Positions 460 to 4,371 of a stretch of 4,579 nucleotides of DNA are shown in pieces; the first letter of the stretch is position 1; each line of letters opens with the position of its first letter. This DNA comes from a virus (lineage: Duplodnaviria; Heunggongvirae; Uroviricota; Caudoviricetes): positions 1 to 4,579 of the IMG/VR virus record IMGVR_UViG_2778261247_000015; one strand, written 5' to 3'. The position numbers and the translations under genes were made by a program. The notes under the pieces are model-generated. The model ran no database searches. It was not told the DNA's origin and worked only from the letters and a program-made list of their open reading frames with translations.

Positions 460-633
460 ATGGAAGATCAAAAAGCAACCAAGCCACAGGTTAAGTTCGA
501 CACAATGAAAGCATTCGCAGGTATGGGGGCTGCTGTTGAAGTTCTGATGAAGGCTGCTCCTAATGCGTTCACTCACGCTACTGTCTCTGGTAAAGAGCAG
601 CAGGGTAAGCTTCGTCGTCGCAAAGCAGCATGA
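460..633 (+). CDS. Small hypothetical protein (57 aa, MEDQKATKPQVKFDTMKAFAGMGAAVEVLMKAAPNAFTHATVSGKEQQGKLRRRKAA), basic C-terminal tail
   Basis: Absent from the supplied ORF track; found by manual translation. ATG at 460 is preceded by GGAG (450-453) at 6-nt spacing; TGA at 631-633; a strong intrinsic terminator follows 24 nt downstream. Begins 40 nt after the stop of the 1-420 gene, so probably co-transcribed. Confidence 0.5.
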   Translation: MEDQKATKPQVKFDTMKAFAGMGAAVEVLMKAAPNAFTHATVSGKEQQGKLRRRKAA

Positions 634-652: not shown

Positions 653-682
653 AAAACCCGCCTTCAGGCGGGTTTTTTCTTT
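653..682. terminator. Bidirectional rho-independent terminator between convergent transcription units
   Basis: AAAA-CCCGCC(657-662)-TTCA-GGCGGG(667-672)-TTTTTTCTTT. Perfect 6-bp GC-rich stem with 4-nt loop; T-run on the plus strand and A-run (T-run for minus-strand transcripts) on the other side. Sits 24 nt after the 460-633 stop and immediately after the minus-strand stop at 681-683. Confidence 0.75.
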
Positions 683-962
683 AGTGATGTTCTTTGTCCT
701 TCTGTTTGACTGTTCTGACCTGTTCCCACTCGATACGTCCTTCTTCTCGCCTTTTGTCTATGTATTCCGCAAGATCTTGAATATTGATGCAACGTTTTGC
801 TTTTTGTGATGTGCCGATGCGATATGTTGGAACGGGCAACTTACAAGCGTTTGCTTTTGCCTCTGCCGTGGCTGGACTCATACCAAAGTACTTTTGGCTA
901 ACTGCTGAGAGTTCAATGTTTGGGGTATTGAATTCAGCCATCAGTAAAAACAAGGTGTTCAT
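681..962 (-). CDS. Excisionase-like / PrtN-family DNA-binding protein (93 aa from MNTLFLLMAEF...)
   Basis: ORF 681-989; the GTG at 989 and ATG at 974 lack an SD, whereas ATG at 962 is preceded by GGAG at 6 nt, so 962 is the preferred start. Sequence ...SAVSQKYFGMSPATAEAKANACKLPVPTYRIGTSQKAKRCINIQDLAEYIDKRR resembles PrtN/excisionase-like small DNA-binding proteins of enterobacterial prophages (recalled similarity, not searched). Last gene of the leftward operon, ending at the terminator. Confidence 0.55.
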   Translation of the reverse strand: MNTLFLLMAEFNTPNIELSAVSQKYFGMSPATAEAKANACKLPVPTYRIGTSQKAKRCINIQDLAEYIDKRREEGRIEWEQVRTVKQKDKEHH

Positions 963-998
963 AATTTTCTCCATCAAAACCGGCTGCACCCGGGAAAA

Positions 999-1571
999 TC
1001 ATAATTCTGTGCTGGTGGCAGGAATTAATTTCTGCCAGATAGCGGAAACATATTTTGCCTGATGACGGGCATCAGCCAGGGCGTTGTGCCGTTCGCCATC
1101 GAAAGGCATGTCCATTTTGGGGTCGAATCCGATGGAACGCCCAAGCGTAACGATCGTGCGCACATCGTGATCATTCCAGTACGCCCACGGGCAGATTTGT
1201 CCTGCTCGCTCGTAAGCTCCACGTAAAATTACGTTGTCGAAGTTGGCTCCGTTACCCCAGACTTTTAAATATTTCGTATTGTCTGCGTGCCGATTGATGA
1301 AATGGCTCAGTTCAGAGAGTGCATCGCTGATCGACAAAGTATCATCAATGCAGATTGCAGCTCGTGCTTCAGGGCTTTGTTTCAACCACCACAGGATGGT
1401 ATCGCCGTCAGGTGTAGCTCCTTGCTTCATAGCACTGTCCAGGCTGACAACCGCATAGAATTCTTGTCCGATGTCTCCGGTTTCTGGGGTGAAGAACACC
1501 GCGCCAATAGAAACGATCGGCGCATCCTTATTTTTCCCCATCGTCTCAAGGTCGATCATTAAGTTGTTCAT
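999..1571 (-). CDS. DEDDh-family 3'-5' exonuclease (DnaQ-like fold, phage-type)
   Basis: Translation carries Exo I (MIDLETMG, D-x-E), Exo II (WGNGANFDNVIL) and Exo III (HNALADARH, H-x4-D) motifs. ATG at 1571 overlaps the upstream TGA by 1 nt (TGATG) with AGGAGG 7 nt upstream; the track's GTG at 1574 is a less likely start. Confidence 0.8.
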   Translation of the reverse strand: MNNLMIDLETMGKNKDAPIVSIGAVFFTPETGDIGQEFYAVVSLDSAMKQGATPDGDTILWWLKQSPEARAAICIDDTLSISDALSELSHFINRHADNTKYLKVWGNGANFDNVILRGAYERAGQICPWAYWNDHDVRTIVTLGRSIGFDPKMDMPFDGERHNALADARHQAKYVSAIWQKLIPATSTEL

Positions 1572-2167
1572 CACTTCACCTCCTGCGGCGGTTCCGGTAG
1601 CGGCATCCAGTGAGTTGCTTGCTCAATACCATTACCCGGCTTAATCGTTGCATCTCCGCGCCGAAAAGTGCTTCCGGTATAGCGTGCGGAGCATATTAGC
1701 GGTTCAACCAGAGAGCTATCGAAATTCACCGAAATGAGCACGTTCTGATTCTTCTCAGGCATTCGCTCACTACAGCTTATCCAACTATCCGGAGTTACCG
1801 GAGAGTTGGTTGACGTTTCCGAGGTTTCCCGAAAATTATTGGTTGACGAATCCTTATTTTCCCGAAAGTTTCCAGCCTGAAGCATGGCGGCGCGGTGACA
1901 CCAGATAATCCAGCCAAGCGCCATATCCCATGCCATGTATTCGCTATCGCCATTTTTTGCCCTGCGACGATCTACAGATTCCCCGAAACGCTTCTCCATA
2001 AATAATTCATAGGCTGCCCGTTCATCCGATACTGCTTCCAGCGATGCCAGCGCAATCCGTGCCAGCTCTTCCGCTTCTTCTGCTGGCAGTACAACGTTGC
2101 TACCAGGTCCGTATGTTTTGCGCCACTCCTTGATTGTCAGCAGTCGCTCTTTGGTAATAGTGGTCAT
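1571..2167 (-). CDS. DUF551-domain prophage protein (198 aa) with an internal 11-aa tandem repeat linker
   Basis: ATG at 2167 with AGAGGA 7 nt upstream. C-terminal region (...GNGIEQATHWMPLPEPP) resembles the DUF551 domain common in lambdoid early regions (recalled). The central linker FRENKDSSTNN/FRETSETSTNS is encoded by a 33-bp tandem repeat. Confidence 0.7.
   Translation of the reverse strand: MTTITKERLLTIKEWRKTYGPGSNVVLPAEEAEELARIALASLEAVSDERAAYELFMEKRFGESVDRRRAKNGDSEYMAWDMALGWIIWCHRAAMLQAGNFRENKDSSTNNFRETSETSTNSPVTPDSWISCSERMPEKNQNVLISVNFDSSLVEPLICSARYTGSTFRRGDATIKPGNGIEQATHWMPLPEPPQEVK
1806..1871. repeat. 33-bp imperfect tandem direct repeat (2 copies) inside the DUF551 gene
   Basis: Copy A 1806-1838 TTGGTTGACGtttccgaggTTTCCCGAAAatta; copy B 1839-1871 TTGGTTGACGaatccttatTTTCCCGAAAgttt; about 25 of 33 positions identical by manual alignment, in frame (11 codons). 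Confidence 0.7.
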
Positions 2168-2921: not shown

Positions 2922-3403
2922 TGGTTGCCCTCCTTCATAAAAATAATCCAGTGGGTCTTGTCACCCTTTCCTGTTCGTTGACCGATAACAGGCTTTCTGT
3001 CGGTCAGTGCCAATATCTGGCGAACAGGTATTTGCGTTTCATTCCATTTAAAAATCAGAACGCCGTATGGCCACAACACACGAAAGGCTTCTTTGAATCC
3101 CTGCCGTAAATCATCACGCCAGGTATCTTTATTCAGCCGTCCATATTTCTTTCCCATCCAGGCGTTATCACCAACACGCTCAAGATGCGGAGGGTCGAAT
3201 ACAACCATCGAAAAGGATGCGTCTGCAAATGGTAGTGCACGAAAATCAGCTATCAGGTCAGGACTGATAATCAGGCGTCGTCCATCACACAATGTGTGCT
3301 CTTCCTTTCTGATATCGCTAAATATCGCCCGGTCGTCATTCTTATCGAACCAGAACATGCGACTGCCACAGCACATGTCGAGGATTGCTGCATGTCCAGT
3401 CAC
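2918..3403 (-). CDS. Small SAM-dependent methyltransferase-like protein (putative phage N6-adenine/N4-cytosine DNA methyltransferase, about 161 aa)
   Basis: ILDMCCGSRMFWF resembles SAM-binding motif I and VVFDPPH resembles the (D/N)PP(Y/F/H) catalytic motif IV of amino-methyltransferases. Preferred start is GTG at 3403, overlapping the upstream TGA (GTGA) with AAAGGAGG 6 nt upstream; the track's ATG at 3436 would overlap the upstream gene by 37 nt. Confidence 0.55.
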   Translation of the reverse strand: MTGHAAILDMCCGSRMFWFDKNDDRAIFSDIRKEEHTLCDGRRLIISPDLIADFRALPFADASFSMVVFDPPHLERVGDNAWMGKKYGRLNKDTWRDDLRQGFKEAFRVLWPYGVLIFKWNETQIPVRQILALTDRKPVIGQRTGKGDKTHWIIFMKEGNQ

Positions 3404-3750
3404 TGGCTGCCTCCTTTGCGAAGCCGTTCCGCCCATTCTTCAAGGGATTTCTCTGCATATTCACCGGACAGGCCATCAATCGGATGCGATTCATTAGCTA
3501 ACTCTTCTTTTGCTGACAGAATCATGCGTGTAACGTCGAAAACTTCAGCCAAAGGCTTATTGATAAATCCGTGATTGAAAGCAGCAGCAAGACGGCTTGC
3601 GGTATAGTTAATACCCTCGTTGCGAGCCTCAGCACGTACTTCATCGAATTTACGCACCAGATACTCAGCATTTGTTTCATTCACTTTCAGATCTCGCGGT
3701 ACACATTTCCCGCGAAGAAACCCTTCCATTTCGAAAACATTCATGCGCAT
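3400..3750 (-). CDS. Hypothetical protein (116 aa), unknown function
   Basis: ATG at 3750 with GGAG about 8 nt upstream; overlaps the HD gene stop (3741-3743) by 10 nt. No recognisable motif; predicted helix-rich, acidic C-terminus (EEWAERLRKGG). Confidence 0.55.
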   Translation of the reverse strand: MRMNVFEMEGFLRGKCVPRDLKVNETNAEYLVRKFDEVRAEARNEGINYTASRLAAAFNHGFINKPLAEVFDVTRMILSAKEELANESHPIDGLSGEYAEKSLEEWAERLRKGGSQ

Positions 3751-4277
3751 TTGCGTAACTCCGATAACTCGTTAAAACGTTCCATAAACATCCCATAGGC
3801 ATGGCCTGGCGACAGTGGAATAACTTTGAACATCTCTGTTGCCGGGATACCTTCCAGAACAGGCCAGAAAGAGCCATCATCAAGCCCGAGATCACGGCGT
3901 TCGGTTGCCAGCATAATGAGATCGGCATATTTCACTGGCGTGCTCATAACAGGAGGTAACCCGTATTTCTCACGGATTACGGCGTCTATTTTTTCTTCCA
4001 TCCGTTTATAGTCAGGAAGAAGTCGTTTCAGTGGCGCGGGGATGTCCTGGCAATATGCTTCTGTTGCATCATGCATTAACGCTTCAAAAGCAAATTCCTG
4101 CGGCACCAGCTGGCTGCAAAGCACCGCATGCTGGGCGACACTGTAGAAGTGTGAAAGATGTCCTGCAAAGCGACAGATATTTGAAAGGGAAACTGCGATA
4201 TCGTTAATCACGATGTCGTCTTTATTTATCTTGTCATAATAAAAATGCTTCCCGGAAAAAGTTTTAATAAATGACAT
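3741..4277 (-). CDS. HD-domain phosphohydrolase (YfbR-like 5'-deoxynucleotidase family, putative)
   Basis: Metal-binding pattern H...H...HD...D: NICRFAGHLSHFYSVAQHAV then LMHDATEAYCQDIPAPLK, closely matching the HD-domain signature of YfbR-type nucleotidases. The track start at 4289 is GTG; ATG at 4277 has GGAG 6 nt upstream and is preferred. Confidence 0.8.
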   Translation of the reverse strand: MSFIKTFSGKHFYYDKINKDDIVINDIAVSLSNICRFAGHLSHFYSVAQHAVLCSQLVPQEFAFEALMHDATEAYCQDIPAPLKRLLPDYKRMEEKIDAVIREKYGLPPVMSTPVKYADLIMLATERRDLGLDDGSFWPVLEGIPATEMFKVIPLSPGHAYGMFMERFNELSELRKCA

Positions 4278-4371
4278 TTCGTTCTCCACTTTATATGCGC
4301 TGCACCGCGCTGAATTCTGCTAAAAGGAAGCTCTCACCATCCGGTGATTATTGAGTTAATTACGTTTCCAT

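Follow-up and report, generated by a model that had tools for sequence, protein, structure and literature searches.

Organization of the DUF551 gene

The window, that is, the whole 4,579-nucleotide stretch of viral DNA that we analyzed, carries on its minus strand an ORF (positions 1571 to 2167, from the ORF list) encoding a 198-amino-acid DUF551-domain prophage protein that bears a short internal repeat. This protein is 100% identical to an E. coli "DUF551 domain-containing protein" (P0001) and matches phrog_60 (E value, 2.6e-55). Its N-terminal part (amino acids 1 to 97; window 1877 to 2167, minus strand), delimited by the AF2 model, blastn, and the families phrog_660 and phrog_3323, is predicted to be helical, with helices at residues 5 to 18, 28 to 44, 48 to 60, 64 to 71, and 76 to 97 (pLDDT, 37 to 67). 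It is followed by an inter-domain linker rich in serine, threonine, and asparagine (amino acids 98 to 127, AGNFRENKDSSTNNFRETSETSTNSPVTPD; window 1787 to 1876, minus strand), which was recognized by AF2 coil and by composition, and by a beta-rich DUF551 domain (amino acids 128 to 195; window 1583 to 1786, minus strand). The latter belongs to Pfam family PF04448, which it matched over profile positions 1 to 68 of 68 (E value, 3.5e-22; 79.5 bits, the curated gathering cut-off being 22), and its strands, between residues 141 and 188, were modeled with a pLDDT of 70 to 83. The first motif of the domain, WISCSERMP (columns W128 to P136), is nearly invariant; the remainder is swapped among alleles, with many alternative C-terminal bodies. 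A PDB sequence search retrieved no solved structure for any relative of the protein, and a Foldseek search of the AF2 model against the PDB gave no significant neighbor (best E value, 0.63).

At window 1569 to 1574 (GTGATGAAC), the DUF551 gene ends in a TGA that shares one base with the ATG of the next gene downstream, which encodes an Rv2179c-like 3'-5' exonuclease; the mEp460 annotation has the same overlap. This arrangement suggests that translation is coupled along the early-left operon. Elsewhere in the window, at about 640 to 680, we noticed by eye a G+C-rich hairpin with a run of T residues after it (AAAACCCGCCTTCAGGCGGGTTTTTTCT), located between the convergent ORFs 460 to 633 (plus strand) and 681 to 989 (minus strand); from its sequence, this element reads like a bidirectional intrinsic terminator.

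The linker contains a diverged in-frame duplication

Within the linker, two 33-nt units lie head to tail, and their length is a multiple of three, as in a tandem coding repeat. Read in codon register on the minus strand, unit 1 (TTTCGGGAAAATAAGGATTCGTCAACCAATAAT) encodes FRENKDSSTNN (amino acids 101 to 111; window 1835 to 1867) and unit 2 (TTTCGGGAAACCTCGGAAACGTCAACCAACTCT) encodes FRETSETSTNS (amino acids 112 to 122; window 1802 to 1834). In the reverse complement of 1806 to 1871, 25 of the 33 bases (75.8%) are identical between the two adjacent units, and a repeat finder returned the pair 1806 to 1837 and 1839 to 1870 with 78% identity at a spacing of exactly 33. The pair is the strongest offset self-match anywhere in the window, and, by the custom offset-match statistics on which we based its significance, its score was reached by none of 1,000 codon-shuffled versions of the ORF and by none of 200 dinucleotide-shuffled versions of the window. 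A sequence-only reading had described an in-frame 33-bp tandem duplication of about 76% identity at this site, and this description is confirmed; the span that it gave, 1806 to 1871, captures the repeat pair and misses the codon phase by 4 nt, which is harmless for a tandem repeat. Tandem Repeats Finder, run at a minimum score of 30, did not call the 33-bp repeat, because there are only two copies and these have diverged.

The eight positions at which the units differ fall into two clusters, a 13-nt core and the last codons. What is left are two perfect 10-nt blocks whose copies lie 33 bp apart on the minus strand: a 5' block, TTTCGGGAAA, found by exact matching (unit 1, 1858 to 1867; twin in unit 2, 1825 to 1834), and a 3' block, CGTCAACCAA, found by the repeat search (unit 1, 1839 to 1848; twin in unit 2, 1806 to 1815). 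Next to unit 2, there is also an inverted repeat with 12-nt arms and a 5-nt loop (1781 to 1792, CCAACTATCCGG; 1798 to 1809, CCGGAGAGTTGG), which encodes the conserved junction NSPVTPDSW.

As had been proposed from the sequence, the repeat sits between the N-terminal part and the DUF551 domain, the units occupying amino acids 101 to 122 and the Pfam match starting at amino acid 128. Disorder was then assessed on the AF2 model, in which the repeat falls in predicted coil, outside the folded domains. Residues 98 to 128 form the only long predicted coil of the protein, without secondary structure and with the lowest confidence (mean pLDDT, 29 to 31), although this value serves as a proxy for disorder only, because the model, built from a 39-sequence alignment, is poor overall (mean pLDDT, 55.6). 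The composition points in the same direction, since 87% of the 30 linker residues are polar or charged and 10% are hydrophobic, compared to 57% and 33% in the rest of the protein. Coil, very low confidence, and polar composition are what is expected of a disordered linker, here as a prediction from a weak model. The earlier suggestion of a Ser/Thr/Asn-rich disordered tether therefore holds as a reasonable reading, in good agreement with the finding that homologues accept 9-residue linkers to inserted domains. Most likely, as far as the model goes, the linker acts as a passive flexible tether.

Two units predominate among homologues and genomes

The search for homologous proteins retrieved 238 clusters, and 211 of these showed two units side by side; Salmonella proteins are among the 211, which span more than eight different contexts at the N terminus. 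A survey of 5,426 complete genomes of E. coli placed the two-unit segment (116 nt) at 1,289 sites in 649 genomes, which we take as up to about 1,300 two-unit copies in about 645 genomes. Junction-spanning queries detected one-unit alleles in about 30 of the complete genomes, about 17 of the unit-2 type and about 13 of the unit-1 type, and three units were found in a single one, strain SW070917. About 97 to 98% of the linker-bearing copies in complete E. coli genomes thus carry exactly two units, with variation in about 2 to 3%; these census figures are approximate, and the junction queries favor one flank type. Near-identical O157:H7 genomes among the matches listed all carry the two-unit span. 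The comparison of copy number across homologues hence revealed length variation, with one, two, or three units, and not a uniform pair.

The three-unit junction query was non-discriminating against the E. coli genomes, in that two-unit alleles cover it with overlapping pieces, and a synthetic six-unit protein query, which returned proteins of at most 175 amino acids and may miss full-length three-unit forms, was supplemented by DNA pattern scans. When viral contigs (2.9 million) and metagenome records (241 million) were scanned for three copies of CGTCAACCA at 33-bp spacing, only two further relevant sequences emerged. None of the collections scanned yielded an array of four or more units.

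Some candidates turned out to be of a different nature. Length differences among phage homologues, such as the additional 132 bp in mEp460, reflect different modules or inserted domains and not a change in copy number. Likewise, the sole viral contig with three copies of TTTCGGGAAA at 33-bp spacing, L006, matched through an unrelated, non-coding array of five 33-bp units. This array (GTTTCGGGAAACGGGTAGAAAAGGCAATGGTAG; positions 3348 to 3510 of IMGVR_UViG_2675903675_000001, a 99.9-kb viral contig), apparently non-coding, shares the 10-mer of the window repeat; it looks iteron-like, the contig size would fit a phage-plasmid, and it is unrelated to the DUF551 gene. Environmental metagenome contigs contain recurrent 33-bp tandem arrays as well (L226, L228, L231, L233, L237, L239, L241, L242, L246, L247, L252, L255 to L257, L261, L262, and L264), whose unit consists of the palindrome GGTTGA(T/C)GTCC(T/C)CGTCAACC and an A-rich spacer and which were picked up only through a shared CGTCAACCA at 33-bp spacing.

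Unit loss and gain map to the identical blocks

Between the same anchors, alleles with one, two, and three units measure 83, 116, and 148 nt, and the two-unit allele of a broken lineage, with 1 nt missing, measures 115 nt. Copy number hence differs among strains by whole units in exact 33-bp steps, as in VNTR-type loci. The one-unit alleles, each lacking 33 bp, fall into two forms. The first has a unit-2 body (FREISETST..) with its junction in TTTCGGGAAA (L012, L017, L018, and L220), and the second has a unit-1 body and a unit-2 tail (FRENKNSSTSS) with its junction in CGTCAACCA (L011, L219, L221, and L224). One-unit alleles are associated with at least three different N-terminal modules and occur with and without a downstream inserted domain. 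Two of them, L221 (325 to 852) and L224 (160 to 852), from E. coli TUM9812 and DCE7, continue right after WISCSER with an unrelated C-terminal module (TSGKQVIELTMLVKQLVSQLKK...); the DUF551 body being replaced at this point, a mosaic breakpoint lies within the first conserved DUF551 motif.

The three-unit allele, 33 bp longer, consists of unit 1, a hybrid with a unit-2 body and a unit-1 tail, and unit 2, the hybrid middle unit being the product expected from misalignment at CGTCAACCAA. We recovered eight three-unit sequences in all (L007 to L010, L016, L225, and L245), and all eight have in common a CAG-to-TAG stop and a 1-nt deletion just upstream, indicating that a single expansion took place after the gene had been disrupted. 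RefSeq treats the L016 copy, which comes from the only complete genome of the group, as a pseudogene labeled "frameshifted; internal stop". The frameshift in this lineage is due to the separate 1-nt deletion, together with the stop codon, and not to the gain of a 33-bp unit, and a two-unit sibling of the broken lineage exists (L013 to L015). In the broken-lineage alleles L007, L013, and L016, whether with two or three units, a hok/gef-type toxin gene, hokD, lies about 400 bp downstream, and the surroundings, with several other frameshifted genes, look like a decaying prophage.

The linker is one of several exchangeable cassettes

The FRE-repeat linker fills a slot between ...AAMLQxG and NSPVTPDxWISCSERMP in a highly mosaic gene family. 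Blastn of the window ORF against its alleles placed mosaic breakpoints near amino acids 37 to 46, 91 to 98, 120 to 127, 136 to 146, and 181 to 186. The repeat segment is the least-shared piece of the gene, being present in 27 to 28 of 80 related viral loci, and the segment that follows is shared by 75 to 76 of the 80, showing that the repeat linker is one of several alternative fillings of the slot. Indeed, other linkers connect this N-terminal module to the DUF551 domain as well: 9 amino acids (MLQ-SQDSGIKND-W), about 24 amino acids of unrelated sequence, or linkers that hold inserted domains of about 66 amino acids or more. Taken with the unit variants, linkers of 9, 20, 31, and 42 amino acids, unrelated sequences, and inserted domains all occur, and changes in linker length are therefore tolerated. 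Five of the six variable codons in the linker are non-synonymous, which fits weak constraint, although the alleles are too close at the DNA level to gauge selection.

An old duplication with rare whole-unit changes

The explanation that we favor, and hold with considerable confidence, is that of an old in-frame duplication in a disordered linker that is likely a passive tether and one of several cassettes, with rare, misalignment-driven loss or gain of a unit. In this scenario, an 11-codon segment would have been duplicated in frame within the linker of a lambdoid-prophage early-region protein. The units have diverged in the 13-nt core but kept TTTCGGGAAA and CGTCAACCAA perfect and 33 bp apart. 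To judge from the junctions, the units may occasionally misalign at these blocks, either when replication slips or through unequal exchange, and exactly one unit would then be removed or added. Exchange at TTTCGGGAAA would give the single-unit alleles with a unit-2 body, while exchange at CGTCAACCAA could give both the single-unit alleles with a unit-1 body and a unit-2 tail and the three-unit allele. The two-unit state is widespread and the one-unit state restricted, from which we infer that two units are ancestral and one unit derived; one unit could be ancestral in some lineages. The repeat is a stable, old duplication and not a hot spot, with no sign of hypermutability, and it is an ordinary, probably near-neutral feature.

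We considered whether the peptide itself could be what is maintained. The units might be short linear motifs, FRE-x4-STN, for a host or phage partner, or modification sites, two of which are kept for avidity under selection. The residues F, R, and E and S, T, and N are conserved between the units and across almost every allele, with variation in the four residues between them, the two-unit state strongly predominates, and the sole three-unit allele sits in a pseudogene. We nevertheless find this improbable. Intact genes with the same domain pair exist that have no FRE unit at all, including those with the 9-residue linker, unrelated linkers, or inserted domains, and about 30 genomes carry established one-unit alleles that are intact. 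Moreover, the residues in question fall on the two identical 10-nt blocks, and common descent or conversion would account for their conservation just as well; we found no family, structure, or paper tying the FRE-x4-STN peptide to a function. The more specific proposal that the peptide is a docking or modification site, that selection holds the number at two, and that the three-unit form survived only because its gene was dead is somewhat less credible again; if it were true, the motif linker would offer a handle for finding binding partners of DUF551 proteins.

We also asked how far the data support a hypermutable, contingency-type locus in which frequent expansion and contraction tune linker length as an adaptive switch. 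Alleles with one, two, and three units in exact 33-bp steps do exist, and one-unit alleles occur in several sequence contexts. However, one unit equals 11 codons, so that all length variants stay in frame, two units that are 76% identical are a poor substrate for slippage, as also reflected in the missing Tandem Repeats Finder call, nearly all copies are in the two-unit state, a single expansion lineage emerged from the E. coli genomes, viral contigs, and metagenome records scanned, with no array of four or more units, and close isolates agree in state, as seen for the O157:H7 genomes listed. A contingency locus would switch reading frame or promoter spacing and carry a long tract of perfect short repeats; here, the frame stays the same and the units are two and imperfect. 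The locus also lacks the several near-identical, finder-detectable, and often varying units of a VNTR. We therefore disfavor hypermutability and tuning and regard an adaptive switch as very unlikely. The sequence-only reading had called the site a hot spot of expansion and contraction, of which the existence of one-, two-, and three-unit alleles in 33-bp steps stands, while the frequency implied does not, given the predominance of two units, the one expansion lineage, and the absence of arrays of four or more units from the collections scanned. Its further idea that the repeat may tune linker length finds no support: the steps keep the frame, the three-unit form is known only from an already broken gene, and nothing suggests that the length is tuned.

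Finally, we give hardly any credence to a DNA- or RNA-level element, be it a pair of protein-binding sites spaced by 33 bp (the quasi-palindrome TTTCCCGAAA) or a structured RNA that includes the adjoining inverted repeat. In its favor, TTTC-NN-GAAA has 4-nt palindromic arms and four matches with at most one mismatch in the window (0.28 expected), and the inverted repeat abutting unit 2 is complementary at 11 of 12 positions and forms a hairpin in the MFE fold. Against it, two of the four 10-mer matches are the duplication itself, and natural alleles have a changed 10-mer, reading CGGAAA in AU5Stx1 and TTTGGG in the broken lineage. The region folds no better than shuffles (z = -1.35; 13 of 200 as good), and scans of it gave neither an Rfam match nor a terminator-like site. 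In one-unit alleles, moreover, the symmetry of the inverted repeat is lost in part, with no compensatory changes. A promoter scan of the repeat region gave two weak consensus matches, both on the opposite strand.

An old duplication with rare misalignment, the reading that we retain, makes the locus a small, clean case of a diverged two-unit coding repeat that has long been stable and in which rare whole-unit changes fall exactly at the leftover identical blocks. In practice, 33-bp length differences at this site should be neither taken for assembly errors nor relied on as a fast-evolving typing marker. In addition, the linker provides domain boundaries for the separate expression of the N-terminal module and the DUF551 domain.

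Comparison with known systems

In the literature, DUF551 is a portable domain of unassigned function, found for example in YfdS and in a Stx-phage Ea22 variant (PMC10834534, PMC4776307), and the papers mentioning it contain nothing on a repeat-bearing linker. YfdS, from the E. coli K-12 cryptic prophage CPS-53, resembles the window protein in being a small early-region prophage protein with a C-terminal DUF551 domain, a likeness by domain. The two regions are also alike in encoding an HD-domain YfdR/YfbR-like protein (window 3741 to 4289; PMC4776307). In the window, this ORF (minus strand) belongs to the same operon as the DUF551 gene at 1571 to 2167 (minus strand), and its Pfam YfbR-like score, 24.3 bits, is just under the cut-off of 25.9. 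By analogy, the HD protein and the DUF551 protein of the window echo the yfdR-yfdS pairing of CPS-53. Overexpression of the CPS-53 yfdR-yfdS pair inhibits replication initiation (PMC4776307), but the phenotypes that belong to yfdS, namely H2O2 sensitivity and a part in yfdQRST replication inhibition, are not transferable to the window protein.

The mosaic Ea22 variants of lambda and Stx phages, among them Ea22 V2 with its DUF551 C terminus, share with the window gene the exo-xis, early-left neighborhood (PMC10834534). Like the DUF551 gene, they show block mosaicism, with portable C-terminal domains on shared N-terminal segments; unlike it, they are described without a tandem-repeat linker (PMC10834534). 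The Ead/Ea22-like protein of the window is encoded by a separate gene (2322 to 2921), and the DUF551 protein has no Ead_Ea22 signature.

Bacterial and phage proteins can carry VNTR-like coding repeats in inter-domain linkers that are of low complexity and rich in Ser and Thr, and classical VNTR linkers have many near-identical units that vary frequently. The DUF551 linker is similar to these in its in-frame units, its polar, disordered composition, and its whole-unit differences between strains. It departs from the classical cases in having two units that are 76% identical, variation in about 2 to 3% of copies, and a range of one to three.

Deletion and duplication between short direct repeats arise by replication slippage or misalignment, as at lacI-type hot spots and in RecA-independent short-homology rearrangements. 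Unlike in the lacI-type cases, the mechanism here is read from junctions alone, in which slippage and unequal homologous exchange between prophages look the same. Nevertheless, the end-points of the 33-bp losses and gains lie within perfect 9- to 10-nt direct repeats 33 bp apart, just as short-repeat slippage predicts. Overall, the locus is a fresh instance of a well-known kind of feature.
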